Shown here: positions 42,821-56,801 of the stretch, one piece after another | Position numbering within the stretch: position 1 is the first letter of the stretch | How the letters are laid out: every line of letters begins with the position of its first letter | Assembly: GCA_016283745.1 (NCBI GenBank) | Contig: JAEENM010000147.1 | Location: forward strand, 23,079 to 87,078 | Source of the DNA: Bacteroidales bacterium | GTDB taxonomy: Bacteria > Bacteroidota > Bacteroidia > Bacteroidales > P3 | Direction: 5' to 3' | DNA length: 64,000 nt | Position numbers and translations under genes: made by a program | Notes under the pieces: generated by a model | What the model saw: the letters and a program-made list of their open reading frames with translations, nothing else | Database searches by the model: none | Told to the model about the DNA's origin: nothing

Positions 42821-45385
42821 ATGGCTAAAAAGACCAAAATATCCCTTTCGCGCCTTGAGTCGTTTCTCAAGGCACAATGCGACCGTCTGCGTACCAGCAT
42901 GGATGCGGCGGAATACAAGAACTATATCATTGCGTTGCTTTTCCTGAAACGAATCAACGACCAGTTTGAAATTGACCGTATTGCGTTGAAAGATGAGCTG
43001 AAAAAGCAATATCCCAATGCCGCTGAAGCCGACATCGAAGCGGAATTGGACATTCCCGAAAAATATATCTGCTACGTGCCCGACAAGGCACGTTGGAAGT
43101 TCGTGCTCAACCTTGTGGATGACGAAGGTGAAAACATAAGTTACGCCGATGCCATTACCACGGCATTGGCCGAGGTGGAGAAATCCAACTCGGCACTGCT
43201 GTCGGGTGTGCTGAGCAAGACCAAGTTTAACGAACTGAACACCAAAGGTGAGCGTGTGCTGGACGAGGAGACGCTCAGCGCTTTGCTCAAGGATTTCAAC
43301 GACTTCCCGAAACTGCAGGACGAGAATTTTGAATTTCCCGACCTGCTTGGCGCGGCATACGAGTATCTGATAAAGTTCTTTGCTGAAAGCGCAGGTAAAA
43401 AGGCTGGCGAGTTCTATACGCCGTCCGAAGTAGTCTATCTGATGGGGCAGATTTTGCAACCAAAGGAGACCGACGAGATTTGTGACCCTACCGTGGGCTC
43501 GGGTGGTTTGCTGATTACGATGCATAACTACGTGGAAAACCGCTACGGAAGCGCCGAACGGCTTACCTTGCACGGACAGGAGAAGTTCGACAGTCCTTAT
43601 CAGATGTGCAAGATGAATATGATTTTCCACAATATACGTAATGCGCGCATCGAACAGGGTGACACGTTGCTGAATCCGAAACTGGTGACGGGCGGCACGC
43701 TCAACCAATACGACATTGTGGTGGCCAATCCGCCATTCTCGCAGAACTACACCACCGCCAATATGCAGTTCAAGGAGCGTTTCCAAAACTGGATGAGCAA
43801 GAAGAAACAAGCCGACTTTATGTTTGTGCAGCACATGATTTCTGTGCTGAAAAACAACGGTCGTATGGCTGTGGTGATGCCGCACGGCGTGCTTTTCCGT
43901 GGCGGCGAGGAGCAGAAAATGCGCCAACGCCTGATTACGGGCAGCGAAGGCCACCCATCTTGCATACTGGAATGTGTCATTGGGCTACCGCAAGGGCTGT
44001 TCTACGGAACGGGCATCCCGGCTTCGCTGCTGATTATCAACAAGGCAGGAGCCGCCGACCGACAAGGCGTCTTCTTCATCAATGCCGACCGAGAGTATAA
44101 GGAAGGCAAGAACCAGAACTCGCTGCGTCCCGAGGACATTGAGAAAATCAGCTACGTCTATCACAACAAGATTGAGATTGAAGGTTATAGCCGTATGGTG
44201 AGCCGCGAGATGCTGGAAGCCGAAGACTACAACTGCAATATCCGCCGCTATGTGGACAATTCGGAGCCGCCCACGCCGCAGGACGTAAAGGCGCACCTGC
44301 AAGGCGGAATTCCCGAAGCGGAAATATTGGCACTGAAAACAGAATTCGACTGCTATAAGGGTTTGCAGAACAAACTATTTACTGCGGCAACCGATGGTTA
44401 CGCCCATTTTGCGGATGCTGTAATGGAGAAAGCCGACATAAAAACCATTATCAGCGAAAGCAAAGGCAAACAGCAGGTTGCCGACGACTACCGCAAGGCG
44501 ATAGAAACCTTCTGGAAAGCCTCGGATGCCGATTTGAACAACCTGCACGGCGGCAGTCTGTTCGATTTCAACAAGAACCTCACCGACAGCTTTGTGTCGG
44601 CGTTGTCGAAATTGAAGGTCTTGGACCAGTATCAGGTGCGCGGCTCGTTCGCCCATTTCTCGGATATGCTGAAAAGCGACTTCCGCAGCGTGCAGTCGAG
44701 CGGATGGACGGCGGAGCTGATTCCCGATGATGAGCTCATTGCCAACGAGTTCCCCGAAGTTTTGGCCGACCTGAAACGGCTCGAAAACCGCCGCGACGAA
44801 CTCGATGCCAAGTTTGCCGAGATTGCCGAAATAGACCCTGAAGAGTGGGACGCTGAGCAATATGAAGTGATGCCCAAAAGTGTGATTTCGGACATTAAAG
44901 CAGAAATCAAAGAGTTGAAAGCCCAGAAACGAGAGTTGGCCAAACAGCAGAAAGCTTTGGAGAAACGTCGCAAGGCAGGTGCGGATGTGGCTAAAGAAAT
45001 GGCACAATGCACTGCCGACATTGCCGGACTCGACAGCCAGATTGCCGAAAAGGAAAACGGCATCGCCCACCATGTGGAACTCGAAAACGAGCTGAAGGAG
45101 AGCCGCCGACAGATACGCGAGATAGAGCGTAGCAAAGAGGCACTGGCCGACAAAGCCCGCGAGCAGATTTCGGACGACGATGCCCGCCGACTGATTACGC
45201 AGCGCTGGCTCGCCACCCTGCACGACAACATTGCCGTCTATCTCGAAGCTCACGCCCGACACTTGCAGCAAAACGTTGAACTGCTTCACGATAAGTATTC
45301 CGTGACGCTACGGAATCTGATTGAGGAGCGTGACGAGGCTACGAAAGAGTTAGACGGGTATTTGAAAGAATTGGGGTATATTTAA
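42821..45385 (+). CDS. hsdM: Type I R-M methyltransferase subunit HsdM with a long C-terminal coiled-coil extension (854 aa)
   Basis: Motif I ICDPTVGSGGLL, motif IV IVVANPPFSQNY, N-terminal HsdM-N-type helix bundle. The last ~350 aa are K/E/A/L-rich. Confidence 0.92.
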   Translation: MAKKTKISLSRLESFLKAQCDRLRTSMDAAEYKNYIIALLFLKRINDQFEIDRIALKDELKKQYPNAAEADIEAELDIPEKYICYVPDKARWKFVLNLVDDEGENISYADAITTALAEVEKSNSALLSGVLSKTKFNELNTKGERVLDEETLSALLKDFNDFPKLQDENFEFPDLLGAAYEYLIKFFAESAGKKAGEFYTPSEVVYLMGQILQPKETDEICDPTVGSGGLLITMHNYVENRYGSAERLTLHGQEKFDSPYQMCKMNMIFHNIRNARIEQGDTLLNPKLVTGGTLNQYDIVVANPPFSQNYTTANMQFKERFQNWMSKKKQADFMFVQHMISVLKNNGRMAVVMPHGVLFRGGEEQKMRQRLITGSEGHPSCILECVIGLPQGLFYGTGIPASLLIINKAGAADRQGVFFINADREYKEGKNQNSLRPEDIEKISYVYHNKIEIEGYSRMVSREMLEAEDYNCNIRRYVDNSEPPTPQDVKAHLQGGIPEAEILALKTEFDCYKGLQNKLFTAATDGYAHFADAVMEKADIKTIISESKGKQQVADDYRKAIETFWKASDADLNNLHGGSLFDFNKNLTDSFVSALSKLKVLDQYQVRGSFAHFSDMLKSDFRSVQSSGWTAELIPDDELIANEFPEVLADLKRLENRRDELDAKFAEIAEIDPEEWDAEQYEVMPKSVISDIKAEIKELKAQKRELAKQQKALEKRRKAGADVAKEMAQCTADIAGLDSQIAEKENGIAHHVELENELKESRRQIREIERSKEALADKAREQISDDDARRLITQRWLATLHDNIAVYLEAHARHLQQNVELLHDKYSVTLRNLIEERDEATKELDGYLKELGYI

Positions 45386-45400
45386 TGGACAATTGCAGTT

Positions 45401-46486
45401 ATGGATATAAACTATAAAAATTGGATAACAAGCATTGCCGCCAGATTCAAACAAGCGCAGATTAAGGCTGCTACGCAGGTGAATGCCGAAATGCTTCGGT
45501 TTTATTGGGAACTGGGGAAGGATGTTCTGCAGCTGTCGGAGACTTCGGCCTATGGTGACAAGGTTTTGCAGAAAATCAGCAAGGATTTGCAGTCTGAACT
45601 GCCAGATGTAAAATCTTTTTCACCGACCAATCTGCTCTATATGAAGAATTTTTATGCTCTTTATTATCAATACATTACAAACGCTCCACAACTTGTGGAG
45701 CAATCAGAAAACGAGTCGGCGCAAATCACTCCACAAGTTGTGGAGCAATCTCAAAAAATACAACTTGAAAAATTATTCAGAATACCGTGGGGACATCAAC
45801 GATATATAATCGACAAGTGCAAAGGTAACCCACGGAAAGCGATTTTCTATGCAAGCAAGACATTGGAAAACAACTGGTCGAGAGCTGTTTTGCTCAATTT
45901 TATGGATACCGACTTGTTTGAACGGCAAGGGAGGGCTATATCGAACTTTAAGAATCAGTTGCCCGCGCCTGACAGCGACTTGGCTCAAGAGATAACCAAA
46001 GACCCGTATAATTTTGATTTTCTTACCATACACGAGCGTTACAACGAAAAAGAACTAAAGGACGCGCTTATGGACAACATCACAAAATTTCTGCTCGAAC
46101 TGGGCAACGGCTTTGCCTTTGTGGGGCGTGAAGTGCGGATTATGGTCGGCAACAAGGAGAAGTTTATTGATATGCTCTTTTATAACATCAAGCTGCATTG
46201 CTATGTGGTGCTCGAAGTTAAGGTGACACCGTTTGAATCGGAGTATGCGGGACAGCTCGGCACCTATGTGGTGGCGGTGAATCATCAGCTCAAAGGCGAA
46301 AAAGATGCCGCCACCATTGGCATTTTGGTGTGCAAAGGCTTGGACAAGGTTGAAGCACAATATGCGTTGGAGTCGTCGAGCCAGCCCATAGGCATATCCG
46401 GCTATACGCTGTCGAAACTCATCCCCGAAAAATTCAAATCTTCGCTGCCAAGTATTGAGGAAATCGAAGATTCAATAAACAATTGA
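45401..46486 (+). CDS. YhcG/DUF1016-family PD-(D/E)xK nuclease-like protein (361 aa)
   Basis: N-terminal WELGKDV...YGDKVLQKISKDL and C-terminal FIDMLFYNIKLHCYVVLEVKVTPF...GQLGTYV are characteristic of DUF1016. Nested between hsdM and hsdS. Confidence 0.75.
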   Translation: MDINYKNWITSIAARFKQAQIKAATQVNAEMLRFYWELGKDVLQLSETSAYGDKVLQKISKDLQSELPDVKSFSPTNLLYMKNFYALYYQYITNAPQLVEQSENESAQITPQVVEQSQKIQLEKLFRIPWGHQRYIIDKCKGNPRKAIFYASKTLENNWSRAVLLNFMDTDLFERQGRAISNFKNQLPAPDSDLAQEITKDPYNFDFLTIHERYNEKELKDALMDNITKFLLELGNGFAFVGREVRIMVGNKEKFIDMLFYNIKLHCYVVLEVKVTPFESEYAGQLGTYVVAVNHQLKGEKDAATIGILVCKGLDKVEAQYALESSSQPIGISGYTLSKLIPEKFKSSLPSIEEIEDSINN

Positions 46487-46488
46487 CA

Positions 46489-47742
46489 ATGATGACCGAG
46501 CAAGAACATAATAATGTACAATGGAAGAAGGTTCGTTTTGGCGAGTTCTTTGATATGCTGCCGACAAACACATTGTCAAGGGATAAATTAAACAACCAAC
46601 AAGGTGAATATCAGAATGTTCATTACGGCGATGTTTTGATAAAGTACCCATTTTGTCTTGACTGTAACAACGCTGAAATCCCTTACATAAACGACGGTGT
46701 TAAGTTTAATATGGCAGAAGTTCGTGATGGTGATGTGATTTTTGCTGATACGGCGGAAGATGATACTGTTGGAAAGTGTGTTGAAGTGTTGAATGTAGGT
46801 GACAGAAAAATTGTCTCAGGTTTACACACATATTTTTGCAGACCAAGACATAAAATGGCATTGGGTTATTTGGGCTATTATTTGAATAGCAATCATTTCC
46901 ACAACCAATTGTTGCCTTATATAGCAGGTTCCAAGGTTTCGTCTGTAAACAGGACTTCCATTGCTCGCACTTTTATTTCCTATCCCGCCGACCTTTCCGC
47001 CCAGCGCCGCATAGCCGCCATACTCACTTCTGCCGACAAGGTGATAGCCGCCACGCAGAAAACCATAGCCAAATACAAGCAGATGAAGCAGGGAATGATG
47101 GAAGACCTTTTCAATGAACAATGTATAATGAACAATGTACAATGGAAGAAGGTGAGGTTGGGGGAATACATTGAATTGCAAGGAGGTTTTGCGTTTCAAA
47201 GTCGTGATTTTTCAGATTCAGGAGTTCCTTTAATACGAATAGGGGATATAACACCTAACGGACTAAATATTAGTAATTCTGCAAAACTGCCAATTGATTA
47301 TTTGACTGAATATGAAAATTTTGTATTGAATATTAATGATACTGTTATTGCAATGTCAGGCGCAACGACGGGAAAATGCACATTAGTTACTCAAAAAGAC
47401 ATACCTGCATTATTAAATCAACGGGTTGGACGGTTTAGGATTAAAAACAACAGTATTGATAAATTGTTCTTATACTATATTGTAAGTAATAACGTGTATC
47501 AGCAGAAATTACTATTAGATGCCGTTGGTGGAGCACAACCTAATGTAAGTCCAAAACAAATAGAATCGGTGTTTTGCAATGTTCCAATTCTATCGGACGG
47601 AAGACCAAATCTTACCGAGCAGCGCCGCATCGCCGCCATACTTTCGGACATAGATGCAAAAATAGCGGCGGAGGAAAAGGTGCTGGAGAAATATGAGAAG
47701 GCGAAGAAGGGGTTGATGGAGAGATTGTTGAACGAGAAATGA
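46489..47742 (+). CDS. hsdS: Type I R-M specificity subunit HsdS (two TRDs)
   Basis: Duplicated NNVQWKKVR(F/L)GE TRD starts and duplicated conserved helices (A/E)QRRIAAIL...KY(K/E)..K.G(M/L)ME.L(F/L). The ATG at 46489 is preferred over the TTG at 46483. Confidence 0.9.
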   Translation: MMTEQEHNNVQWKKVRFGEFFDMLPTNTLSRDKLNNQQGEYQNVHYGDVLIKYPFCLDCNNAEIPYINDGVKFNMAEVRDGDVIFADTAEDDTVGKCVEVLNVGDRKIVSGLHTYFCRPRHKMALGYLGYYLNSNHFHNQLLPYIAGSKVSSVNRTSIARTFISYPADLSAQRRIAAILTSADKVIAATQKTIAKYKQMKQGMMEDLFNEQCIMNNVQWKKVRLGEYIELQGGFAFQSRDFSDSGVPLIRIGDITPNGLNISNSAKLPIDYLTEYENFVLNINDTVIAMSGATTGKCTLVTQKDIPALLNQRVGRFRIKNNSIDKLFLYYIVSNNVYQQKLLLDAVGGAQPNVSPKQIESVFCNVPILSDGRPNLTEQRRIAAILSDIDAKIAAEEKVLEKYEKAKKGLMERLLNEK

Positions 47743-47776
47743 TAATTTATAATAAAACATAAAATAATTATTATAT

Positions 47777-50719
47777 ATGAATAAGAAGAAATTAGAAACG
47801 ACAGAGAGCAAAAGAATAGATAAGATAGAGGGCTTAACTATAGACAAATTAAATAAAACAATAGTTCAGCTTTTAAAGATTACAAATTTTGAAAATATAG
47901 TTGAGAACGAAAACTATATTATAGCAACAGAGAAATCATATTTTTCGGAAATAAAGCACGTGTTTGTTATTCCAACAATAAGGATGAGTGGGAGTATTGA
48001 TATCGATAGTGTAGTAAAATTAATTGAATCCATTCAGTCAAATGAATTGGCAAATGTCGTAACATTAGTATCGCAATTCCACATATCAAAGGGCTTTCGT
48101 GCGGCTTTTGAAGCGAAGTTGAACAATATTAAGTTTGATTATCTTGATAGAGATGTTTTGATTCAATATATCAATAAATATAATGATTCTTTTTGGAGAC
48201 ATGAAGATGTAGAGTTGCTTTCTTACGAAAAGTACTTCAAGGAACAATTAAATAACGAAAATCAACTTAAAAAGCTTCATCTGTCCAATGATAAATATCA
48301 AAAAATAATCAACTTATATATACAACCGACACTCTCAACAAATGAAGAAGAAGCCAAGACGCACACATACCATAGAAAAAGAGTTGATGTCGAAGGCGTG
48401 TTGAATGAGCCATCGTGCGTATTTCTAAGTGGAATTTCTGGCTCAGGGAAAACAACATTGTTAAAGAGGATTGGAGTAAAACTATTAGAGAATAATGATA
48501 CTAAAGACGGTAAGTTGAATCTACCCATCTTTATCACATCTTCTGATTTACTAGAACACAATCGTAATATCAATGATGTAATTCTGTCAAAAACAAAAAA
48601 CCATCTCCCCTATGATAAATTGCATGAATTATCAGATAAATACGATGTTAGTGTTCTTGTTGACAGTATAGACGAGTTTGAAGAAAAAGACAGAATGGAA
48701 ATATTGCGCGTTCTATTAAACAACTATACTAATAAAGGTATGAAGTTTTACATCGGTTCTCGTGGGACATCTATTGAAGATGAAAGATTACCAATAAAAG
48801 GGAAAATTAGAGAATATTACATCAATAGCTTCAATCAAGAACAGATTAAAAGATATGTGCAAGCACTTTTGCCTAATGAAGATAAGGCCAACTCGTTAAT
48901 GGATTCTTTACGAGAAAATAAAATTCTTGAGAAATTGCCAATTACACCTTTGACGCTTTCTCTCATAACTATTATATACGATGAGCAAGATTATGAAATC
49001 CCTGCAACTGTTACTGATATATACAAACAATTTAACAATATTATAAACGGTAGGAATATTGTTTCAACAAAATTTGAATTTGTTGATATTAGTTTTAGGG
49101 AAAGGGTTTTGTCAATCTACGGGTTATATCTTCTTGAACAACCAAATCATGAGCCCATGAAACGAAAAGAGTTTGTCTCGTTTTACAAAGAGTTCTTCAA
49201 AGGAAAATCTTTAACATTCGAATACGAACAAATTGACGATGTGTTGGAGTATATCCTTAATAACACTGGAATACTATACCTTAAAGAGGATAATACTGTG
49301 CGTTTTGCTCATGATTCATATATGGAGTTCTATGCAGCAGTTGAAATTTTTAATTATCATAGAGAGAAAGAAGATGATATTGTTTCAAACTTCTTTGATT
49401 TAATGTGGCAGAATGTTGCCATATTCTATGGTGGAATGACAAAAGATATGTGCCTTTTTGCAGAGAAGATAAACAATAAATTAAAAAGTGCCGCTAAATT
49501 TATTGAATACATATCTGGCATACAAGGTGCGGGTTATTTATTACAAGCACTTTATATGACTGACAATGAAAAAAGAAAGGATGTTATTCTAACTGCTCTT
49601 GATTTGGTTTTGGAAACAAATGAGTTTTTTAAAAAAATGACCACAATCAATGAGACAATGTTCCAAAACTACAGATTACCAATTGTCCAACTGCTAAATT
49701 TTCTCCATTTCTACGAGATGTTTAATTCATTAACTCTACGAGAACCGTTGACAATGACTTTTGAGCAATTGCGAACAGAATACGAATTTATGTTGGAGGA
49801 TAAAAACAGTATTGACACAACCAAGCTTCCTGCTTTAGGATATAAACTTATAGAATTAGCATTTACTTTGGATTCCAAGCGATTAAATGATCAAAGAGCT
49901 TTAAATTATGTTGTTGAACAAAATGAGTTAATGCGAGATAGTAATCTATATTCATTGATGAATCTATGCCTAGATTTTTTAAATAAAACAAATTATAAAG
50001 AATTAAGGCAAAGTGTATCAAAGAGTGCTTCAAAAATACAACCTCTACTCAATGTGCTTTCCGATGATCCTACCGGAAAAATACGTTTCTCTCCAATGGA
50101 TAGTGTTCATCCGAATCGTAAAGTAAAATTATTTGTTGAAGGGAAATCAGATGCCATAATACTCGAACATGCTTATATGACTCTTACAGGAGGGCAATCC
50201 CCATATTGGAACATAGCTATGGCTACAAGTAACGGAGAAACCGGTTCGTCTATAGAGGTTACTAAAGCCATTGAAACAGCTCTAAATTATAAAAACGAGT
50301 ATGATTTCATTATTGGCTTATTCGATCATGATGCTGCTGGTTTGAAAGAGTTCTGTAGATTAAACAGTGATTCTTATGAACAGATAGAAAAACGGTGTAT
50401 AAAACGAAGAAAAAATAGTAATATATTTGTAATGTGTCTGCCGATTCCAGCAGAAATGATTCAATATGAGCAAGAAAGACAGGAGTTCAATTTCTTTGAA
50501 ATAGAGCATTACTTTGGGCATGATTATCTGAAACGAAACAATATGATAAAAGAGAAACAAACTTTAGATAATGTATATGAAATTAAAGATAAAAATAAAA
50601 TACCATTTGCATATGATATTTGCAAGGAGGTGACCCCAGAAATATTTAAATTTTTTGTGGATTTATTTAAAAAAATAGATGAAATAACAGGAAGACAGAT
50701 TGATTATTTGATTAATTAA
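47777..50719 (+). CDS. STAND/NACHT NTPase with a C-terminal TOPRIM-like domain and an N-terminal Mrr-like region (980 aa)
   Basis: Walker A FLSGISGSGKTTLLKRIG, Walker B VSVLVDSIDEFEE, NACHT-type LPITPLTLSLI and FAHDSYMEFYAA. C-terminal KLFVEGKSDAIILEHAY + GLFDHDAAG gives the TOPRIM Glu and DxD motifs. Visibly AT-rich compared with the hsd genes. Confidence 0.8.
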   Translation: MNKKKLETTESKRIDKIEGLTIDKLNKTIVQLLKITNFENIVENENYIIATEKSYFSEIKHVFVIPTIRMSGSIDIDSVVKLIESIQSNELANVVTLVSQFHISKGFRAAFEAKLNNIKFDYLDRDVLIQYINKYNDSFWRHEDVELLSYEKYFKEQLNNENQLKKLHLSNDKYQKIINLYIQPTLSTNEEEAKTHTYHRKRVDVEGVLNEPSCVFLSGISGSGKTTLLKRIGVKLLENNDTKDGKLNLPIFITSSDLLEHNRNINDVILSKTKNHLPYDKLHELSDKYDVSVLVDSIDEFEEKDRMEILRVLLNNYTNKGMKFYIGSRGTSIEDERLPIKGKIREYYINSFNQEQIKRYVQALLPNEDKANSLMDSLRENKILEKLPITPLTLSLITIIYDEQDYEIPATVTDIYKQFNNIINGRNIVSTKFEFVDISFRERVLSIYGLYLLEQPNHEPMKRKEFVSFYKEFFKGKSLTFEYEQIDDVLEYILNNTGILYLKEDNTVRFAHDSYMEFYAAVEIFNYHREKEDDIVSNFFDLMWQNVAIFYGGMTKDMCLFAEKINNKLKSAAKFIEYISGIQGAGYLLQALYMTDNEKRKDVILTALDLVLETNEFFKKMTTINETMFQNYRLPIVQLLNFLHFYEMFNSLTLREPLTMTFEQLRTEYEFMLEDKNSIDTTKLPALGYKLIELAFTLDSKRLNDQRALNYVVEQNELMRDSNLYSLMNLCLDFLNKTNYKELRQSVSKSASKIQPLLNVLSDDPTGKIRFSPMDSVHPNRKVKLFVEGKSDAIILEHAYMTLTGGQSPYWNIAMATSNGETGSSIEVTKAIETALNYKNEYDFIIGLFDHDAAGLKEFCRLNSDSYEQIEKRCIKRRKNSNIFVMCLPIPAEMIQYEQERQEFNFFEIEHYFGHDYLKRNNMIKEKQTLDNVYEIKDKNKIPFAYDICKEVTPEIFKFFVDLFKKIDEITGRQIDYLIN

Positions 50720-50734: not shown

Positions 50735-50881
50735 CACAAACAACCCGCCAAGAAATTAATTGTAAATTGTTCATTGTAAATTGTTAATTGATTATGAGTG
50801 AATATACCAACGTTGAGCATCCTTTTCTCGAAAAGCTGCGCGAGATAGGCTGGCAAGTGATAGACAAAGGCAGCGGCGGCG
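50735..50881 (+). repeat. Copy A of the hsdR upstream region + first 29 codons
   Basis: Manual alignment to 52805-52944. From the ATG, 4 mismatches over 87 nt. The upstream part differs by about one heptamer indel plus a few substitutions. Confidence 0.9.
50756..50790 (+). repeat. Heptamer-phased tract (TWMATTG x5) immediately upstream of the hsdR-remnant ATG
   Basis: ttaattg|taaattg|ttcattg|taaattg|ttaattg. Confidence 0.8.
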
Positions 50882-50892
50882 GATATTTTTGA
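50794..50892 (+). pseudogene. Truncated hsdR 5' remnant (MSEYTNVEHPFLEKLREIGWQVIDKGSGGGYF*)
   Basis: Identical over the first 15 aa and near-identical afterwards to the true HsdR N-terminus at 52858. Diverges after GSGG and stops. Confidence 0.85.
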
Positions 50893-50975
50893 AACATTCA
50901 GTTGCAAGTTCTTCTGAAAAATCGTATTTTTGCATAATCGTAAAATAGAATTGAAATAAATAAAATATATTGATA

Positions 50976-52262
50976 ATGAGCAGAATAAAGGTTAGGAACT
51001 TCGGGCCCATCCGCGAAGGGTTCATCGATAACGACGGATGGTTAGACATTGGAAAAGTCACCGTTTTCATCGGAGACCAAGCCTCCGGCAAAAGCACCGT
51101 GGAGAAATTGGTTTCGTTGTTCACATGGATAGAAAAAAGTATAGTTCGTAATTTGATTTCACCGGATCAATTAAATGTCGATATTTTTAAGAATTTATGT
51201 GCTCAGCAGGATATTATCGAATATTTTGCCAAAAACACATTTTTGTCCTTTAAGGGAGAGGCATACGACTTTGAATACGATGAGGTAAAAAAATCTTTTA
51301 AATCTAGAATCAACAATACGGGATACAAGAGCTATGTTTTGCCCAAAATTCAATATGTATCAGCGGCAAGGAATCTGCTTACAATTTTGTATAACATTTC
51401 ATTACAGAATATTGTTGACAAAAATGGCAATGTTATAGATTTGTCTTCAAATATCCCGTTTATGGTCAGGGTTTTGAATATTGAATACTTGAAAGCGTTG
51501 GAAGAATATGCGAAAAATGGATTTGCTTTGCCAATAAACGACACAAGTGTGTACTATCAGAATCATAACACATATATTATGGCAAAAGGCAATCGGGTAT
51601 CAATGGCAGCGGCTTCAAGTGGCATACAGTCTATAACGCCATTGCTGCTTGTCAGTCATTCTTTGTCGAATGAAGTAAGGAGAGACATATATGAGAAAGT
51701 ACAAACGATAGATAATAATCTTAAAAACAGAATAGAGGCTGATTTTGCAAAAGAAAAATCGAGTTTGTACGATAAATTCAAACAGATTAGTTCTTTTGGA
51801 AGGGGAATTTTGACAGACAAAGAAGACGAAAAATTGTTGGATACGAAATTGAAAAAATACATTCCTTCATCTTTTATCAACATTGTTGAAGAACCAGAGC
51901 AGAACTTGTTTCCCAACTCTCAGCAAAAGGTAATAAATAGATTATTGGAGTACAACAATGCCGTAAAAGAAAATAAACTTATACTTTCCACTCATTCGCC
52001 CTATACTTTGACGGCACTTAACAATTCTATTTTAGCAGAAGAAGTGTTTGAAAAAACAGGAAAGTCAATTGATGCTTACAGCCCGGAAAAGATGGTCTCT
52101 TTTGCTGATGTTGCCGCCTACCAATTAGAGGATGGCAAAATAATCAGCATAAAAGATGAAGAAACCAGACTGATAAATGCAGATGCCATTGATGGTTGCT
52201 CTGCAAAAATAAATTCCGATTTTGATGACTTGTTAGATTTGTTGCCCGAAAACGATGAATAG
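50976..52262 (+). CDS. ABC/SMC-type (AAA_15/21-like) ATPase, candidate defence ATPase (428 aa from ATG)
   Basis: IKVRNFGPI lead-in, Walker A FIGDQASGKST, signature-like AASSGIQS, Walker B FINIVEEPEQNLFP, H-loop LILSTHSP. AT-rich. Confidence 0.8.
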   Translation: MSRIKVRNFGPIREGFIDNDGWLDIGKVTVFIGDQASGKSTVEKLVSLFTWIEKSIVRNLISPDQLNVDIFKNLCAQQDIIEYFAKNTFLSFKGEAYDFEYDEVKKSFKSRINNTGYKSYVLPKIQYVSAARNLLTILYNISLQNIVDKNGNVIDLSSNIPFMVRVLNIEYLKALEEYAKNGFALPINDTSVYYQNHNTYIMAKGNRVSMAAASSGIQSITPLLLVSHSLSNEVRRDIYEKVQTIDNNLKNRIEADFAKEKSSLYDKFKQISSFGRGILTDKEDEKLLDTKLKKYIPSSFINIVEEPEQNLFPNSQQKVINRLLEYNNAVKENKLILSTHSPYTLTALNNSILAEEVFEKTGKSIDAYSPEKMVSFADVAAYQLEDGKIISIKDEETRLINADAIDGCSAKINSDFDDLLDLLPENDE

Positions 52263-52264
52263 CG

Positions 52265-52732
52265 ATGAATGTTCAAAATAATGGTATAAAAATCACGGCT
52301 CCCTCATTTTCAACCGACGTTGAACTAAGCAATGACAAACGCCAGTCTTTTGTGTTGAAAGGCGAGCATAAACGGAAATGGACAGCGGAAAATCCAAATA
52401 AACATATTGGGGTTTGTTTGAAAATAGATGATGCATTGATAGCAACAGAGCAGCAGAATAAGTGCGACCGCGGGCTTTTGTTGGATGATAATCGTTTGTA
52501 TTTGGTCGAACTCAAGGGCGATGATTATAAAACCGCAGTAATCCAACTGATTGAAACAAAGAAATACTTTTTGTCCAATTATTCAGATTATGATTTGGCC
52601 TTTCATGCAAGAATTGTAGGAAGGTCTTTCCCGAAAGCGACAACAGAACTTCAAAAGGCTAAGAAAGATTTAAAGAAGAACTTTGGCAATAATTTTGCAC
52701 TATTTGAGAATAAAAGATCAGAGAAAATATGA
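52265..52732 (+). CDS. Small PD-(D/E)xK-like protein partnered with the ATPase (155 aa)
   Basis: KCDRGLLLDDNRLYLVELKGDDYKTAVIQL gives a D...E-x-K arrangement. The start is 3 nt after the ATPase stop. Confidence 0.6.
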   Translation: MNVQNNGIKITAPSFSTDVELSNDKRQSFVLKGEHKRKWTAENPNKHIGVCLKIDDALIATEQQNKCDRGLLLDDNRLYLVELKGDDYKTAVIQLIETKKYFLSNYSDYDLAFHARIVGRSFPKATTELQKAKKDLKKNFGNNFALFENKRSEKI

Positions 52733-52769
52733 GTGAATACGCGAACGTTTAGCATCCTATTTTTTTCTC
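52729..52769 (+). repeat. Copy C: degenerate ~40-bp remnant of the hsdR 5' end
   Basis: atgagtgaatacgcgaacgtttagcatcctattttttt versus atgagtgaatatacaaatgttgagcatccttttctc. Contains an in-frame TAG. Its ATG overlaps the TGA of the 155-aa gene. Confidence 0.7.
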
Positions 52770-52804
52770 AAATTCTTAATTCCATCGAAAGAGTTTGTTT
52801 TTTA

Positions 52805-52944
52805 CACAAACAACCCGACAAGCAAAATAATTGTTAATTGTAAATTGTTAATTGATTATGAGTGAATATACAAATGTTGAGCATCCTTTTCTCGAAAAGC
52901 TGTGCGAGATAGGTTGGCAAGTGATAGACAAAGGCAGCGGCGGC
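52805..52944 (+). repeat. Copy B: authentic hsdR upstream region + 5' end
   Basis: See copy A. Confidence 0.9.
52827..52854 (+). repeat. Heptamer-phased tract (WTAATTG x4) immediately upstream of the hsdR ATG
   Basis: ataattg|ttaattg|taaattg|ttaattg. Confidence 0.8.
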
Positions 52945-55900
52945 ATTCCGCAAGACCCCGCCGAGAGTATGCGCACGTCGTTCAGCGAAGTGGTGCTCAA
53001 AGATGAGTTCTTCAAGAAGTTGGGCGAACTCAACCCGTGGATAACCGCGGAGCAAAAGGAATACTGCTACCGCAAAATCACCGACATTGACAAGCCGCTA
53101 ACCGATGCCAACCGCGAGATTCACAATATGCTGCTCGAAGGCATCCACCTGCGCACCAAAAACGAACAGACGGGCGAGGAAAACCCAACAGCCAAAGTCA
53201 TCAACTTCGACAGATACGAGAAAAACTCTTTCATTGCCATCAACCAGTTCCGTGTAGATACCAACAACACCAAACCCTTCATCATCCCCGACATTGTCTG
53301 CTTTGTCAACGGTCTGCCGCTAGTGGTGATTGAGTGCAAAGACGAGAATGTCTCGGAGCCGATGAGCGAAGCCTTCGACCAGATAAAACGCTACGCCAAC
53401 CAGCGTGTCATCGACGACCCTTTTGCCGACGGCATATCGGAGGGCTGCGAGCGGCTGTTCCATACCAACCTGTTCAGCGTCATCACCCGTGGCGTTGAGG
53501 CGCGATGCGGCACCATCTCGGCCGATTTCGATTTTTATCTCAATTGGAAAGACATATTTCCCGAAGAGTACGCCGAAGGCACCAACATCAACCCCGCCGA
53601 ACGACAGGAAATCCTTATCAAAGGAATGTTCAACCACGAGATTCTGATTGACATCTACCGCAACTTCACGCTCTATATGCAGAAAGGCGACAACACGGTG
53701 AAAATCATCTGCCGCTATCAGCAATATCGCGCCGTGGGCAAAATGATTCGCCGCTTACAGAGCGGCACCGACTGGCGTAGCCGAAGCGGCGTCATCTGGC
53801 ACACGCAGGGCAGCGGCAAGTCGCTCACAATGGTGTTTCTGGTCAAGAAGATGCGCCGCATTGCTGACCTTCGCGACTACCGCATACTGATGGTGGTTGA
53901 CCGCCACGACTTGGAAGACCAGTTGGCCGAAACCGCCGAATACACAGGCGAACTGCGCCACGACCCGACGACCAAGAAGGTTCAGAACATTGTGGAGAAC
54001 CGTCAGGCGCTGGTGAAACTCGAAGGCGACACCGCCGACCTTAACTTGGTGATGATTCACAAGTTCGGCGAAAACAAGGAGTACTCGCTCGAATCGCTGA
54101 TAAATGCAGGCATTGTGCCGCAATACGAGTCGTTCCCCGTCATCAACGAGAGCCCGAAGATTCTGGTGCTGATAGACGAGGCGCACCGCAGCCAGGGCGG
54201 CGAGATGGGCGACAACCTGTTCCAGGCTTTCCCCAATGCGGCACGCATCGGTTTCACTGGCACACCGCTCATTACGCCGCGCCATAAGGCAACCACCTGC
54301 GAGCGTTTCGGTCAGCAGGCGGGAGTTTTCATCGATACATACAAGATGAACGATTCGGTGCGCGACAACGCCACCGTTGATATAAAATACATCGGTCGCA
54401 AAAGCGACGACAGCATACCGTTCAAAGACGAGTTCGATGCTGAATTTGAACGCACATTCGCCAACCGCTCGCAAGAGGAGCGAATTGAGATTCAGAAACG
54501 TTACGGCACAATGATTGCCTACCTTGAAAGTGCCGACCGAGTGATGAAAAACGCCCGCGATATGCTTGCGCATTACGTTTCGGAAATCCTTCCAAACGGA
54601 TTCAAAGCGCAGGTTGTGGCATCGTCAATTATGGCGGCAGTGCGTTACAAAATCGCTCTCGAAAAGTTGATTCCTGAATTTATTGCGGCAGAAGAACAAA
54701 AGTCGGACGACGAGCGCGACAATGTGATGTTGCAACGCCTGCGCATGTTGAAGGTTCGGGCTGTGGTGTCGAGTGCGGGCAACAACGAGGCCGCAATTAT
54801 TCGCACTGCCCGAATAGAAGCCGACACCGACGATGCCATCACCAACTTCAAAAAGGATTTCGATGCAGAGAATCCGCTTTCGGGCATTGGCATCCTTTGT
54901 GTCTGCGACCGCCTTCTGACGGGTTTCGATGCGCCAGTTGAGCAGGTGATGTATCTCGACAAAAACCTGTCGGAGCACAACCTGATGCAGGCCATCACCC
55001 GTGTGAACCGCACCAAGAAGAACAAAAAGCACGGCATTGTGGTCGATTACTTCGGCGTCACCAAAAACCTGCACAAGGCTCTGGGCATCTACAATGCCGA
55101 CGATGAGAAAGCGGCAAAAGAGGATTTGGCAGAGTTCGAAACCTATTTTTCCGCCATCGAAAAAGAGATCCCCGAGTTGGAGATGCGTTACAACAAAATT
55201 GTTCAGCGATTCGAGAACGAGGGCATTGCCGACATCAACGATTTTCTTGAGCAACGCACAAGCAGGGAGCGCGAAAAGGAACTTTGTGAAAAGATTGTGG
55301 AAGTGGCCGAAAGCATCAAATTCCGTTCGGAGTTGGATGCCTTGTTCCGCCTGTTCTTCGACATCTTCGACCTGCTTTTCAACGAGCCTGAAACACGCAG
55401 CCGCTATTATGTCCCCGCCAAACGAATGGCCTACATTGTGGCACTCATACGTTGGCACTATAAAGATGAGACGCTCGATTTGAAATGGGCGAGCGAGAAA
55501 GTGCGCCGCCTGCTCGACAAATACCTGAAATCAGATGGTGTTCGCGAGACAGTTCCCGAAGTGGATATCTTGTCGGATGATTTCCCAAAGATTGTTAGCA
55601 ATATGTACGGCAATCCGCAGACTGTGGCTTCGGCTATGGAGCACCAAATCCGCGACCGTATCATTATCAAATTGGGTGAAGGACGGAACACCGCACTTTA
55701 TCAGAAGTTCAAAGACCGAATGGAAAACATTCTCACCACATACGCTGGCAACTGGTCGGAGATGATAAGCGAATTGGAGCGTCTGCGTCAGGAATTGGCA
55801 AATCCGAAACCCGCTGTGGTGTCGGAGGAAAAAGAGCCCTTCTACGACAAACTCTGCCAATGCGCAGGCGTGGATTTTGAGGATCGCCACGACAATATCA

Positions 55901-56118
55901 TCGCTGTCACTGATCAGGTGATGACGCTGATATATGCTGCTATGTCCATTCCGAACATCTGGACAAAACCAACCAACGTGAACGATTTGCGAGGAAAGAT
56001 TGGCACAACATTGCGATTCTCGGGCATTCAGCAACTGAAAGAGAACAGCGAATCCATTGTTACAGAATTGATTAAGTTGGCAAAAAGTAATGAGAGCGTT
56101 TTGAGGCAATTCGTATGA
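52858..56118 (+). CDS. hsdR: Type I R-M restriction/helicase subunit HsdR (1086 aa from ATG)
   Basis: N-terminal nuclease region IPDIVCFVNGLPLVVIECKD (PD..E-x-K), helicase motif I WHTQGSGKSLTM, motif II LVLIDEAHRSQ, motif III GFTGTP, motif VI QAITRVNR. Confidence 0.95.
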   Translation: MSEYTNVEHPFLEKLCEIGWQVIDKGSGGIPQDPAESMRTSFSEVVLKDEFFKKLGELNPWITAEQKEYCYRKITDIDKPLTDANREIHNMLLEGIHLRTKNEQTGEENPTAKVINFDRYEKNSFIAINQFRVDTNNTKPFIIPDIVCFVNGLPLVVIECKDENVSEPMSEAFDQIKRYANQRVIDDPFADGISEGCERLFHTNLFSVITRGVEARCGTISADFDFYLNWKDIFPEEYAEGTNINPAERQEILIKGMFNHEILIDIYRNFTLYMQKGDNTVKIICRYQQYRAVGKMIRRLQSGTDWRSRSGVIWHTQGSGKSLTMVFLVKKMRRIADLRDYRILMVVDRHDLEDQLAETAEYTGELRHDPTTKKVQNIVENRQALVKLEGDTADLNLVMIHKFGENKEYSLESLINAGIVPQYESFPVINESPKILVLIDEAHRSQGGEMGDNLFQAFPNAARIGFTGTPLITPRHKATTCERFGQQAGVFIDTYKMNDSVRDNATVDIKYIGRKSDDSIPFKDEFDAEFERTFANRSQEERIEIQKRYGTMIAYLESADRVMKNARDMLAHYVSEILPNGFKAQVVASSIMAAVRYKIALEKLIPEFIAAEEQKSDDERDNVMLQRLRMLKVRAVVSSAGNNEAAIIRTARIEADTDDAITNFKKDFDAENPLSGIGILCVCDRLLTGFDAPVEQVMYLDKNLSEHNLMQAITRVNRTKKNKKHGIVVDYFGVTKNLHKALGIYNADDEKAAKEDLAEFETYFSAIEKEIPELEMRYNKIVQRFENEGIADINDFLEQRTSREREKELCEKIVEVAESIKFRSELDALFRLFFDIFDLLFNEPETRSRYYVPAKRMAYIVALIRWHYKDETLDLKWASEKVRRLLDKYLKSDGVRETVPEVDILSDDFPKIVSNMYGNPQTVASAMEHQIRDRIIIKLGEGRNTALYQKFKDRMENILTTYAGNWSEMISELERLRQELANPKPAVVSEEKEPFYDKLCQCAGVDFEDRHDNIIAVTDQVMTLIYAAMSIPNIWTKPTNVNDLRGKIGTTLRFSGIQQLKENSESIVTELIKLAKSNESVLRQFV

Positions 56119-56801
56119 AAATAGGCGATTTGGAAATAGAAATAAAACGCTCAAAGCGGCGAAAAACCATCACCGTTAATATCGAACGTGACGGCAGCGT
56201 GAACGCCGTAGCTCCTTTCGATTGCGACGATGAGACCATCCGCAAAGAGCTTGAGGCAAGGGAGTATCTGATTTGCAAGCATGTGGCTAACAGAATAGCT
56301 GTGAACAAGGCGTATGTAAACCGCACTTTTGTCAACGGTCAGGCTTTCCTTTTTATGGGAGAATCATACAATTTGCATATTTCCGAAACGGCTAGGAAAT
56401 CTCTGGAAATTGTTGACGACAAATTTGTTTTAAGTGAGAAGTGTTTGCCTAAGGCCAAAGAAACCTTCATCAATTTTTACAAAAAACAGGGATTACCTTA
56501 TTTACGAGAGCGGGTTGCCTATTTTTCCAAATTGGTAGGTCGCGAACCCGTTTCCATCCGAATTATAGAATTAGGCTCGCATTGGGCCTCCTGTACCCCT
56601 CGACAAACTATTAATTTCCATTGGAAGTGTATCATGGCCAAGCCGATGATTATCGATTATCTGATAGTTCACGAACTGACGCACCTCAAATATCCCCAGC
56701 ATACCCGACAGTTTTGGGATGCGGTTTTTTCGGTGATGCCTAATTATAAAGAGTGCGAGGATTGGCTGCACAATTATGGAGTGACGCTGGAGCTTATTTG
56801 A
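56115..56801 (+). CDS. YgjP/DUF45-type zinc metallopeptidase (228 aa)
   Basis: HELTHLKYPQHTRQFW (HExxH) near the C-terminus. 4-nt overlap with hsdR. This family commonly follows hsdR. Confidence 0.8.
   Translation: MKIGDLEIEIKRSKRRKTITVNIERDGSVNAVAPFDCDDETIRKELEAREYLICKHVANRIAVNKAYVNRTFVNGQAFLFMGESYNLHISETARKSLEIVDDKFVLSEKCLPKAKETFINFYKKQGLPYLRERVAYFSKLVGREPVSIRIIELGSHWASCTPRQTINFHWKCIMAKPMIIDYLIVHELTHLKYPQHTRQFWDAVFSVMPNYKECEDWLHNYGVTLELI

Follow-up and report, generated by a model that had tools for sequence, protein, structure and literature searches.

Remnants of the hsdR 5' end border defence-type cassettes in a Bacteroidales type I restriction-modification operon and suggest exchange by homology

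How do defence-type genes come to lodge between the genes of a type I restriction-modification (R-M) operon, and by what route might they be exchanged for others? Type I loci are known hosts of restriction-linked genes, examples being prrC in the EcoprrI locus (hsdM-hsdS-prrC-hsdR) and the rlo genes of Campylobacter jejuni. The operon considered here comes from the genome of a rumen Bacteroidales bacterium, where positions 42821-56801 of the window (the whole 64,000-nt stretch of DNA that was analysed) hold one co-oriented type I R-M operon on the + strand (Table 1). That defence genes can be embedded in such operons has been documented before (Payne et al. 2024, bioRxiv 10.1101/2024.01.29.577857; PrrC; TgvAB). 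What is new here is the borders of the modules, as remnants of the hsdR 5' end lie between the cassettes that separate hsdS from hsdR, and these leftovers point to how modules swap among related operons. We put at about 0.7 the probability that the hsd operon is a scaffold on which independent defence-type cassettes, bordered by hsdR stubs, dock and are exchanged by homology.

The gene order is hsdM, the DUF1016 gene, hsdS, the NACHT gene, the ABC ATPase gene, the gene for a 155-aa protein, hsdR and the YgjP gene, and none of the eight ORFs has an internal stop. The junction of hsdM and hsdS thus holds one cassette, the DUF1016 nuclease, whose gene begins 15 nt past the end of hsdM and overlaps the start of hsdS with its own end. 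The junction of hsdS and hsdR holds two, the NACHT gene followed by the ABC ATPase and 155-aa genes. An earlier note on this DNA had mapped the same interruptions and described hsdM, hsdS, hsdR and YgjP as intact, which the open reading frames and the domains found with Pfam, PADLOC and motif matching confirm. It had also called the cargoes nested, but they stand serially and none lies inside another. The hsdR reading frame opens at 52852, with the true ATG six nucleotides further on. In 42 of the 51 related loci YgjP comes after hsdR, and it is therefore a core gene of this long-HsdM/YgjP family of hsd operons. Of hsdS, only the two ends (5' and 3') and the centre are conserved with related loci. 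The operon is working-looking, and R-M activity is predicted from its sequence.

Table 1. Features of the type I R-M operon and its upstream region, in window coordinates
Feature	Coordinates	Strand	Description
Terminator of gene upstream of hsdM	42575-42608		strong
-7 promoter box, Bacteroidetes-type	42720..42727	+	TATTTTTG within AAAAACTGTATTTTTGCAAAAT; 101 nt upstream of hsdM; motif match
hsdM	42821..45385	+	854 aa, long-HsdM family; HsdM_N + N6_Mtase; NPPF motif at residue 303
Cargo 1, DUF1016/YhcG PD-(D/E)xK nuclease	45401..46486	+	PADLOC PDC-S02, E 1.8e-152
hsdS	46483..47742	+	two target-recognition domains (Pfam, PADLOC)
Cargo 2, 980-aa STAND protein	47777..50719	+	Pfam NACHT 2.4e-10; Walker A GISGSGKT
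Stub A	50735..50880	+	copy of hsdR leader (53 nt) + hsdR codons 1-29
Second -7 promoter-like box	50925..50932	+	TATTTTTG within AAAAATCGTATTTTTGCATAAT; 51 nt upstream of ABC gene; motif match
Cargo 3a, ABC-type ATPase (AAA_15/AAA_21)	50976..52262	+	PADLOC PDC-M29A, E 2.7e-87
Cargo 3b, 155-aa protein	52265..52732	+	PADLOC PDC-M29B, E 6.4e-8
Stub B	52729..52769	+	short, decayed hsdR start (MSEYANV*)
hsdR leader	52805..52857	+	tandem TTAATTGTAAATTG-type repeats
hsdR	52858..56118	+	1086 aa; HSDR_N nuclease, SF2 ATPase (GSGKS, DEAH), T1R_D3; D...ECK nuclease motif
YgjP-like metallopeptidase	56115..56801	+	HELTH motif; overlaps hsdR stop

The cargo between hsdS and hsdR had been judged AT-rich by eye, and the computed composition agrees, at 31-36% GC versus 51% for hsdM and hsdR. 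The individual values are 0.515 for hsdM, 0.513 for hsdR, 0.437 for the DUF1016 gene, 0.394 for hsdS, 0.313 for the NACHT gene (GC3 0.281), 0.359 for the ABC gene and 0.365 for the 155-aa gene, and the remainder of the window has a GC of 0.473 (sd 0.047 across 1-kb windows). The NACHT gene is AT-richer than its own flanks in 60/60 loci and its GC is independent of theirs, so its AT-richness is no mark of recent arrival here.

The borders of the ABC cassette are formed by copies of the start of hsdR. Stub A matches 52805-52944 with 91% identity across 146 nt (96% in a 116-nt core) and forms a 32-aa ORF (50794-50892); the ABC cassette is thus flanked by a 146-nt direct repeat whose copies are 2 kb apart. 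In stub B the ATG and the stop codon of the 155-aa gene overlap as ATGA, and the true hsdR start shows exactly this overlap in two related loci, L013 and L087. Stubs of this kind number 18 across 10 Bacteroidales loci, the two described here included. All are on the + strand and begin at the hsdR start codon (E-values 1e-5 to 1e-19), and most lie about 8-65 nt past the stop of a cargo gene. A TAnnTTTG box follows within 150 nt in 8 of the 18, in most cases with the same sequence as the box upstream of hsdM; the hsdR leader has none. The architecture that recurs in the 10 loci is thus a cargo gene, an hsdR stub, often a promoter box, and the next cargo gene, and the box that precedes the ABC gene here is likely an internal promoter of that cassette. 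The search detected stubs solely in the Bacteroidales clade of this family, of which L083, L007 and L021 have none; the more distant family members lacked them, as did six NACHT-bearing loci of other hsd families.

The earlier note took the locus for a scaffold of defence cargo, and the insertion polymorphism of its relatives bears this out. Ten of the 51 related loci are compact (hsdM, hsdS, hsdR and YgjP only) and 41 carry cargo, comprising 122 ORFs that fall into 75 protein clusters; 118 of these ORFs run in the direction of the operon. The cargoes that recur are genes already known from defence, namely GmrSD, AbiEi/AbiEii, Schlafen/AlbA_2, a TgvAB-like DUF262 pair and a RecD-like helicase. 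The nearest relatives (L002, L003 and L004, with 92-93% HsdM identity) carry different cargo, and the NACHT and ABC modules reappear in other combinations in the more distant L083, L087 and L013. No turnover was visible at strain level, where contigs with identical HsdR or an identical flanking esterase all share one arrangement. L013 and L087 have blocks in common at 97-98% identity. What sets these loci apart is a 2.2-kb cassette that fills exactly the space from one stub to another, and also the first cassette, which has a stub on one side and the 3' end of hsdS on the other. Stub-bordered cassettes, together with near-identical loci that differ by exactly one of them, suggest homology-driven exchange at the hsdR start.

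Judging from these scars, cassettes would be gained and lost through homologous recombination, with a stub or the 3' end of hsdS serving at one end and the 5' end or body of hsdR at the other. This may occur by a double crossover with incoming DNA of a related hsd locus, or by loop-out and subsequent re-integration of a circle bearing one stub. The first stub in each lineage would have arisen from an illegitimate join within the first ~30 codons of hsdR. Stub ends cluster at hsdR codons ~16-31, which might speak for site-directed exchange instead of ordinary homologous recombination. Transcription of the operon would start from the hsdM promoter and additionally from the promoter before the ABC cassette.

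Could the stubs instead be by-products of local tandem duplication, replication slippage or MAG assembly, with no part in cassette movement? The two long copies are direct repeats merely 2 kb apart, and the data are mostly from MAGs and short-read assemblies. The arrangement is, however, reproduced in independent NCBI and Logan assemblies. Mismatches between stubs and the resident hsdR fall 13/10/40 on the three codon positions (40/63 at the third; chi-square 26, p = 2e-6), so the stubs appear to have diverged within other functional hsdR alleles rather than by decay after local duplication, and some are closer to the hsdR of another locus than to their own. Identical stub-to-cassette junctions are also shared by loci whose upstream neighbours differ (L013_s1 = L087_s1; L013_s2 = L087_s3 downstream), and we consider a by-product origin very improbable. 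That the cargoes are selfish or neutral passengers (e.g., addiction modules), tolerated between hsd genes without benefit to the host and travelling along when the R-M operon transfers, is a possibility raised by Payne et al. themselves. The extreme variety of the cargo (75 clusters in 51 loci) and a composition that never nears that of the host are consistent with such a genomic sink. On the other hand, the three cargoes are full length and their catalytic or NTPase residues are invariant in homologues down to 40% identity, which indicates purifying selection. Recurrent cargoes of sister loci belong to experimentally validated defence families (GmrSD/TgvAB and AbiE), and a Pfam domain search found no transposase or integrase within the locus. 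Passive hitch-hiking is improbable.

Another possibility takes up the suggestion of the earlier note that the cargoes may be functionally coupled to the R-M complex or silenced by it, as PrrC is. On this reading the cargoes between hsdS and hsdR are physically or functionally coupled to HsdMSR, which silences them until a phage blocks restriction with an anti-restriction protein. Like prrC, they are defence-type genes between hsdS and hsdR, and one cassette has an ABC-type ATPase. That ATPase has distant PADLOC matches to the AriA, PtuA and GajA models, and AriA (4.7e-16) belongs to PARIS, which is triggered by the anti-restriction protein Ocr (Payne et al., discussion). Moreover, six loci of other hsd families have a NACHT gene immediately before hsdR, at a distance of about 6-60 nt or in overlap with it, and their HsdR-like protein is only 25-30% identical to the one here; two of the six have a different gene order, NACHT-R-M. 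The association is not obligate, however. Among 24 NACHT loci flanked by 3 kb or more on each side, the gene is inside or adjoining a type I operon in only about 7; ~17 are elsewhere, four of which carry an hsdM- or hsdS-like gene in their flanks. The ABC and 155-aa pair is likewise found alone beside dnaK, away from hsd genes. Because both modules also occur outside hsd loci, PrrC-like coupling is unsupported, and it is unlikely that the R-M enzyme masks them obligatorily. Unlike PrrC, neither protein has an anticodon-nuclease domain, several cassettes are stacked instead of one, and the ABC cassette appears to have its own promoter by motif match. We regard a guard function as unlikely.

Docking and exchange of independent cassettes has partial parallels in known systems. 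Payne et al. described defence systems embedded in type I R-M, BREX, DISARM and Hma operons as 'guilt by embedding', and the same-strand placement between hsd genes is similar (118/122 here vs 96.7% in their paper). Two of the three cargoes also match PADLOC candidates built from embedded genes (PDC-S02 and PDC-M29A/B). The discussion and methods of that paper offer no insertion mechanism beyond a genomic sink, and hsdR-stub borders and cassette promoters do not figure in those sections. TgvAB, a GmrSD-like system of two genes that lies within the type I R-M operon of Vibrio cholerae VPI-2, was validated experimentally and is HsdR-independent (PMC11411939). A TgvAB-like DUF262 pair occupies the slot between hsdS and hsdR in the sister loci L025 and L048, but the cargo families here are others and no stub-delimited array was reported for VPI-2. 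The arrangement also resembles integron arrays, in that one- or few-gene cassettes with a repeated end element stand in series on a fixed platform and loci differ by whole cassettes. In contrast to integrons, the hsd locus lacks an integrase, attC and attI, the border consists of 40-146 nt taken from the hsdR gene next to it, many cassettes have their own promoter (by motif match), and exchange would use general homologous recombination.

Rather than being subunits of the R-M enzyme, the cassettes may each form their own line of defence, in which an NTPase sensor would activate a nuclease-type effector in the style of abortive infection. The ABC ATPase ORF spans 50970-52262, with 50976 as its likely ATG. 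Its partner, read in the earlier note as a PD-(D/E)xK protein, is better termed PD-(D/E)xK-like, given D68, E82 and K84, which are invariant among homologues, and weak Foldseek matches to the nuclease domains of Card1, NucS and Can2 (E about 0.03).

The NACHT protein is a member of a large, uncharacterised family whose C-terminal part is TOPRIM-like but divergent. An alpha/beta domain (residues 1-~140) is followed by the NACHT NTPase (~200-450), a helical region (~450-770) and the C-terminal domain (~780-980). The NACHT half of the earlier label 'NACHT-TOPRIM' stands, while the TOPRIM half is seen below family thresholds only, through E788 and D850-x-D852, which are invariant in the family, the beta-alpha-beta topology that AlphaFold models for it, and sub-threshold Pfam matches to Toprim_2 or OLD-like_TOPRIM in 11/17 family members. 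Like bNACHT and Avs/AVAST STAND NTPases, the protein has its NACHT NTPase in the centre, keeps the Walker motifs intact and is a single-gene module in defence contexts; its NTPase residues are invariant across homologues, and the fold resembles NLRC4, NAIP, NLRP3 and NOD2 (E about 1e-9) as well as Avs4. The protein differs from that group in having its nuclease-like domain at the C-terminus, their usual sensor position, and an N-terminal domain without conserved catalytic residues, and it matches no PADLOC v2 model, including those for AVAST and other STAND proteins, in contrast to the embedded genes of Payne et al. A sequence profile search found no solved structure for the C-terminal domain, which shares TOPRIM hallmarks (E, DxD) and topology with OLD-family proteins and Gabija GajA, although the partner NTPase here is NACHT and not ABC. 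Homologues of this domain follow ABC ATPases in proteins of about 580-690 aa, the OLD/GajA layout, and are also found C-terminal to LRR-Roc-COR and PemK.

The type I restriction-modification (R-M) locus consists of eight closely packed ORFs on the plus strand, from 42821 to 56801, none of which contains an internal stop codon. The domains and motifs of HsdM, HsdS and HsdR (see the table) place the locus among the type I R-M systems, with methylation and restriction as its predicted activities, and the gene spacing (in gene order 15 nt, a 4-nt overlap, 34 nt, ~256 nt, 2 nt, 125 nt and a 4-nt overlap) is operon-like. The ABC ATPase gene and hsdR likely start at 50976 and 52858, in agreement with the public annotation of an identical contig. 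HsdM carries an NPPF motif at residue 303 and matches the PADLOC model MTase_I PDLC03031 over its full length; its C-terminal extension of ~370 aa (residues ~485-854) has no Pfam domain and, given that full-length match, is conserved across the family. The internal duplication of HsdS is visible as the repeats D6 and D9, and both cargo NTPases, the NACHT protein and the ABC ATPase, have a Walker A motif. An earlier note on this DNA had claimed three nested cargo insertions among intact hsd and YgjP genes. Uninterrupted ORFs, Pfam and PADLOC matches and catalytic motifs bear out the intact genes with cargoes between them, but the cargoes are not nested; they form cassettes arranged in series.

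Features of the hsd locus and its surroundings (window coordinates, strand in brackets)
Feature	Size	Position	Characteristics
HsdM	854 aa	42821-45385 (+)	HsdM_N (1.2e-18) and N6_Mtase PF02384 (1.1e-97), Pfam
HsdS			Two target-recognition domains; Methylase_S matched in two stretches (Pfam)
Stub A		50735-50880 (+)	Copy of 52805-52944; 91% identity over 146 nt, 96% over a 116-nt core; forms a 32-aa ORF, 50794-50892
Stub B		52729-~52769 (+)	Shorter, decayed hsdR start, MSEYANV*; overlaps the stop of the 155-aa gene
HsdR			HSDR_N, ResIII/SWI2_SNF2 and T1R_D3 (Pfam); motifs GSGKS, DEAH and D...ECK
YgjP-like peptidase		56115-56801 (+)	HELTH motif
Single large ORF	5779 aa	855-18194 (-)	
Prophage-like block		18205-40265	Directly upstream of the hsd operon
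Cro-like gene		39248-39502 (-)	Divergent from the CI-like gene
CI-like gene		39822-40265 (+)	

Cargo makes up ~6.1 kb, or 44%, of the 14-kb locus. Insertion polymorphism, which the earlier note had proposed to look for in related hsd loci, is present in a comparison set of 51 loci of this hsd family that hold both hsdM and hsdR: ten are compact M-S-R-YgjP loci of ~8 kb, and the other 41 have extra genes between M and R, which lie 1.2 to 9.4 kb apart (median 4.1 kb). These cargoes total 122 ORFs in 75 clusters, 118 of them co-oriented with the operon, and the recurrent ones are well-known defence genes, namely GmrSD, a TgvAB-like DUF262 pair, AbiEi/AbiEii, Schlafen/AlbA_2-HATPase, a sacsin/NOV_C giant and a RecD-like helicase. 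Even the nearest hsd relatives of the window carry other cargo: L002 has the order M-DUF1016-S, a 119-aa ORF, Schlafen and R, and the cargo of L003 and L004 differs again. The NACHT gene directly follows hsdS in L083 (72% identity) and L087 (77%) as well, and the ABC gene and its 155-aa partner directly precede hsdR also in L013 and L087. A YgjP-like metallopeptidase gene was detected in 42 of the 51 loci, in 40 of them after hsdR at a gap of -1 to 52 nt, and would seem to be a fourth core gene, so far uncharacterised, of this type I family; L002 and L083 have further genes between hsdR and YgjP as well.

All three cargoes in the window lie between hsd genes on the plus strand, as embedded defence candidates in the sense of the PADLOC candidate (PDC) models do, and Pfam detected no transposase or integrase domain among the genes of the locus. 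The cargo between hsdM and hsdS (DUF1016_N and YhcG_C, PF17761 and PF06250) matches the PDC-S02 model PDLC04810 over its full length (1.8e-152, residues 3-360). The PDC models derive from embedded genes, with 96.7% co-orientation, and PrrC is cited as the classic embedded case; in the portions of the study drawn on here, PDC-M29 is among 145 candidate PDCs, and nothing is given on the mechanism of embedding beyond the term "genomic sink" (Payne et al., 10.1101/2024.01.29.577857). TgvAB in the type I operon of V. cholerae VPI-2 is a validated embedded system (PMC11411939). Since two of the three cargoes in the window match PDC-S02 and PDC-M29, they are already catalogued as candidates. The facts of the earlier note are thus correct and their kind is ordinary, in that the locus is a further example of published and partly catalogued embedding.

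The borders of the cassettes are another matter. The ABC cassette is flanked by a direct repeat, formed by stub A and the segment 52805-52944, which comprises the 53-nt hsdR leader and hsdR codons 1-29. Stub B overlaps the stop of the 155-aa gene in the same way as the real hsdR start does in L013 and L087. Across ten Bacteroidales-clade loci (the window and its identical copy L089, L002, L003, L004, L008, L009, L010, L012, L013 and L087) there are 18 such stubs, all on the plus strand, which begin at the hsdR start codon, stop after ~13-31 codons and mostly lie ~8-65 nt past a cargo stop. Because a sigma-70-type promoter scan is uninformative for Bacteroidetes, we used the motif TAnnTTTG, the Bacteroidetes -7 consensus, and found it within 150 nt downstream of 8 of the 18 stubs. 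Most of these post-stub boxes share the extended sequence TTGAAAAAnTGTATTTTTGCAAAAT, which also occurs 101 nt upstream of hsdM, and the form GAAAAATCGTATTTTTGCATAAT lies 51 nt upstream of the ABC gene. The architecture visible in the sequence is one of stub, leader and putative promoter box. In the longest array seen, L009 (12580-22559) from a horse-faeces Bacteroidales MAG, hsdS is followed by at least five cargo genes (764, 311, 534, 361 [DUF1016] and 581 aa) parted by four hsdR stubs; 10 kb of it is covered, with hsdR beyond. Remnants of the hsdS 3' end occur right after hsdR stubs (L087, 8040-8111; L010, 7503-7539) and a remnant of the hsdM 3' end after a DUF1016 fragment (L021, 7244-7292), which indicates that other conserved operon ends also leave scars.

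Near-identical loci differ at the level of whole cassettes. L013 and L087 share blocks that are 97-98% identical, and differ by a 2.2-kb three-gene cassette that lies exactly between two stubs and by their first cassette, bounded by the conserved 3' end of hsdS and a stub. Some stub-to-cassette junctions are identical even where the upstream neighbours differ. Differences between stubs and the resident hsdR are distributed over codon positions 1, 2 and 3 as 13, 10 and 40 (chi-square 26, p = 2e-6), and some stubs are closer to the hsdR of another locus than to their own, which together indicate that the stubs come from other functional hsdR alleles. The cassette difference between L013 and L087, the shared junctions and the codon-position bias argue, from sequence comparison, that stubs are recombination joints rather than local accidents. 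No hsdR stubs were found in six type I loci of other families that carry the NACHT gene or in distant members of the window's own hsd family. The hsdR-start/stub consensus, scanned as an exact pattern, had 0 matches in the viral contigs of IMG/VR, and hence there is no evidence of phages carrying these cassettes. Such stubs were not described in the literature covered by a limited full-text search, which included truncated or remnant hsdR and gene cassettes and is not proof of novelty.

How might such arrays arise? We propose that hsdR offers homology-based docking sites in the Bacteroidales of gut and rumen, both in its first ~30 codons and in the stubs derived from them, and that the operons act as integron-like collectors without an integrase, which take up, stack and exchange defence cassettes that bring promoters with them, the order of an array recording its acquisition history; we would give this reading a probability of about 0.5. 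A cassette bounded by a stub at one end and by hsdR at the other could enter any related operon by two homologous crossovers, one between the stub and the 5' end of the recipient hsdR and the other within the body of hsdR. Alternatively, the cassette could leave as a looped-out circle, for whose return one crossover would suffice. Both routes would yield the order seen in the window, i.e., NACHT, leader plus hsdR(1-29), promoter, ABC, 155-aa gene, stub B, leader and hsdR. The first stub of each lineage would require an illegitimate join inside hsdR, and the clustering of stub ends at ~13-31 codons may simply mean that short repeats are those that survive deletion. Integrons rely on an IntI integrase and attI/attC sites, whereas the window locus is without a recombinase gene and its boundary repeats are hsdR fragments that are not attC-like.

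Embedding in R-M operons now serves the discovery of new immune systems, and its origin has been left open. If the docking-site reading is true, how defence systems become embedded in one another would be directly testable. The window locus and its relatives carry a footprint of embedding at the level of sequence, consisting of border stubs, promoter boxes and near-identical loci that are one stub-flanked cassette apart. Should this footprint reflect the mechanism, a stub search could call cassette borders automatically, new defence candidates could be harvested cassette by cassette from Bacteroidales metagenomes, and exchange could be tested in culturable Bacteroides. It is as a testable mechanism for embedding that stub-delimited, promoter-bearing cassette arrays rise above the routine.

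The leader of hsdR consists of tandem ~14-nt units (TTAATTGTAAATTG). The leader sequence at 50759-50791 (copy in 52829-52857) is the reverse complement of 47111-47143 (88% over 33 nt), where hsdS has a tandem unit in its conserved central region, and the same inverted relation is seen in L004 between 13008-13033 and 13619-13645 and the hsdR leader of that locus. The inverted repeat may have been left by a silent hsdS copy in inverted orientation (phase-variation shufflon), or it may act as a regulatory site.

Turning to the cargoes, the only significant Pfam domain of the 980-aa protein is NACHT (residues 214-367, PF05729, 2.4e-10). Its family includes 221 proteins at E <= 0.001, of which the best 120 are nearly all 955-990 aa long and 40-91% identical. 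Among 50 sequences the Walker A/B residues G219, K225, D296, D299 and E300 are invariant, and an AlphaFold2 model built from these sequences (mean pLDDT 81) matched NLRC4, NAIP/NLRC4, NLRP2/3/9, NOD2 and Avs4 in a Foldseek search of the PDB (E 3e-9 to 1e-5; for NLRC4, NAIP, NLRP3 and NOD2, 3e-9 to 1e-7). With Walker A/B motifs and a predicted NLR-like fold, the protein classifies as a NACHT-clade STAND NTPase. PADLOC v2 has no model for it (Avs1-5 and others), the only marginal matches being mad8 (8e-4) and TRIP13 (9e-3). In the tripartite STAND layout the effector is N-terminal and the sensor C-terminal, whereas the nuclease-like domain of this protein is C-terminal. Its N-terminal ~140 aa form an alpha/beta domain with neither a conserved acidic or lysine triad nor recognisable relatives, Pfam gave no match to the N-terminal 195 aa, and PDB-sequence profile searches with the N-terminal (A4) and C-terminal (A3) domains returned only chance-level matches (ferritin, CheY).

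The earlier note had called this a NACHT-TOPRIM protein. The NACHT part stands; the TOPRIM part agrees with hallmark residues and topology and falls short of the Pfam gathering score. In the C-terminal ~200 aa, E788-G789-x-x-D792 and D850-H-D852 are invariant among the 50 sequences, and the model places strands at 783-787, 811-815, 844-849 and 883-887 with helices between them, forming a beta-alpha-beta core in which the TOPRIM hallmarks, a Glu that follows strand 1 and a DxD that follows strand 3, are present. No Pfam TOPRIM-clan family scored above its gathering threshold, the best being Toprim_2 (E 0.0057, 7 of 17 members) and OLD-like_TOPRIM (0.018, 4 of 17). A profile search of 1.8 billion representatives showed that the domain recurs C-terminally in other architectures (E ~1e-17 to 1e-30), and Pfam identified ten such proteins as including five ABC ATPases of ~580-690 aa, two LRR-Roc-COR proteins and one PemK/MazF toxin. 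The layout of the five ABC-type carriers is that of OLD/GajA, an ABC ATPase with a C-terminal TOPRIM. Based on the invariant residues, core topology, sub-threshold Pfam matches and domain architectures, the C-terminus is likely, though not proven, to be a divergent TOPRIM-like effector module. With its fusions to LRR-Roc-COR (ROCO) and PemK/MazF (P0241, P0264 and P0224), the domain behaves like a portable effector module. The NACHT/TOPRIM-like family, ~970 aa long with hundreds of members, many from rumen and gut metagenomes and often wedged against hsdR, is absent from PADLOC v2 and rises above the routine as a good candidate for functional testing.

The ABC-type ATPase (AAA_15/AAA_21 in Pfam) matches PDC-M29A over its full length (2.7e-87), and the 155-aa protein encoded 2 nt away matches PDC-M29B (6.4e-8). 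As adjacent A and B genes that both match their models, the pair classifies as a PDC-M29 system, with a candidate anti-phage role. Pfam gave no match to the 155-aa protein, in which D68, E82 and K84 are invariant (37 sequences). The best Foldseek matches of its model (pLDDT 93) were weak and all to PD-(D/E)xK nuclease domains, those of Card1, NucS/EndoMS, Can2, Mus81 and type II REases (E 0.03-0.3), with Card1, NucS/EndoMS and Can2 at the top (E 0.03-0.1).

One would expect these cargoes to provide layered, independent defence, in which the R-M enzyme attacks unmodified DNA and the DUF1016 nuclease works apart from it. On sensing infection, the NACHT protein would oligomerise and activate its own TOPRIM-like nuclease, and the small putative PD-(D/E)xK nuclease would be licensed by the ABC ATPase. 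Promoter motifs suggest co-transcription from the hsdM promoter and an internal promoter before the ABC gene. It is possible instead that the cargoes between hsdS and hsdR are coupled to the R-M enzyme as PrrC-like guards, as would fit their slot in the operon, the adjacency of NACHT genes and hsdR across hsd families and a distant similarity to AriA. PrrC, however, combines an ABC ATPase with a fused anticodon-nuclease domain and is kept masked by its R-M enzyme, and Pfam detected no ACNase-type domain in the proteins of this locus. A PrrC-type guard should also occur (almost) only inside type I operons, yet both modules occur outside hsd loci. In another Bacteroidales genome the ABC and 155-aa genes form a stand-alone pair, with dnaK on one side and a DUF4988 gene on the other. 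Among 24 NACHT-family loci with at least 3 kb on both sides, the NACHT gene is inside or directly against a type I operon in ~7, including operons of other hsd families, whose HsdR-like proteins share only 25-30% identity with that of the window; six such loci have it ending ~6-60 nt before hsdR or overlapping it. Elsewhere it lies, for example, beside IS elements and a methyltransferase (L084) or beside Schlafen and phage structural genes (L081). These mixed contexts indicate that the NACHT gene is an autonomous single-gene module, enriched at the slot before hsdR and not restricted to it.

That the cargoes are purely passive hitch-hikers is disfavoured by catalytic residues that are strictly conserved over deep divergence. 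Nor is it probable that the stubs arose by local duplication or as an assembly artefact, since independent assemblies show the same arrangement; local duplication was rejected on the codon-position bias and the junctions common to different loci. Docking by homology, with independently acting cargoes, is the reading we prefer. L101 and L102, loci of another type I family, are ordered NACHT-hsdR-hsdM-...-hsdS(+)-hsdS(-); two oppositely oriented hsdS genes, as at the end of this order, are typical of phase-variable specificity shufflons.

The impression by eye that the cargoes between hsdS and hsdR are more AT-rich than the hsd genes was confirmed by calculation. The GC content is 0.515 for hsdM and 0.513 for hsdR (GC3 0.65-0.66), compared with 0.313 for the NACHT gene (GC3 0.28), 0.359 for the ABC gene, 0.365 for the 155-aa gene and 0.473 +/- 0.047 for the remaining window. 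In 60 of 60 NACHT-family loci (L081-L174) the NACHT gene exceeds its flanks in AT content, by a mean of 10 GC points, and its GC content (0.28-0.43) is uncorrelated with that of the flanks (0.34-0.54; r = 0.11). The GC content of hsdM and hsdR follows the host (0.42 in L087 and L013, 0.51 in the window and 0.55-0.57 in L083). AT-richness is a trait of the NACHT family, which stems from either rapid turnover or selection. As the NACHT gene is AT-rich everywhere, whatever the GC content of its flanks, we rejected AT-richness as proof of recent insertion, and by itself it does not date the insertion in the window locus.

The source is a Bacteroidales metagenome genome from the rumen. Over 21 kb, the locus has 100% identity with a contig of the metagenome assembly GCA_016295045.1 (L089), and the nearest HsdM relatives (93% identity) are from rumen and gut Bacteroidales MAGs. 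A megablast search with the 15.5-kb locus gave zero matches in E. coli genomes and PLSDB plasmids. Contigs with an identical HsdR or an identical downstream esterase, in which an empty site or strain polymorphism was sought, all had the same arrangement. DNA similarity to other hsd loci extends from 42803, 18 nt before hsdM, to the end of YgjP (~56790), and no flanking genes common to the window and other hsd loci were found. Thus, the whole operon resides in differing genomic contexts in different genomes. In the window, the prophage-like block upstream encodes on the minus strand a DnaD-like helicase loader, a RecE-like exonuclease, three DNA methyltransferase-type proteins, a radical-SAM protein and a 1074-aa phrog_32516 protein, and it has a divergent Cro-like/CI-like pair. 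An AT-rich stretch at 39.3-42.8 kb lies between this block and hsdM, and a single 5779-aa ORF lies on the far side of the block.
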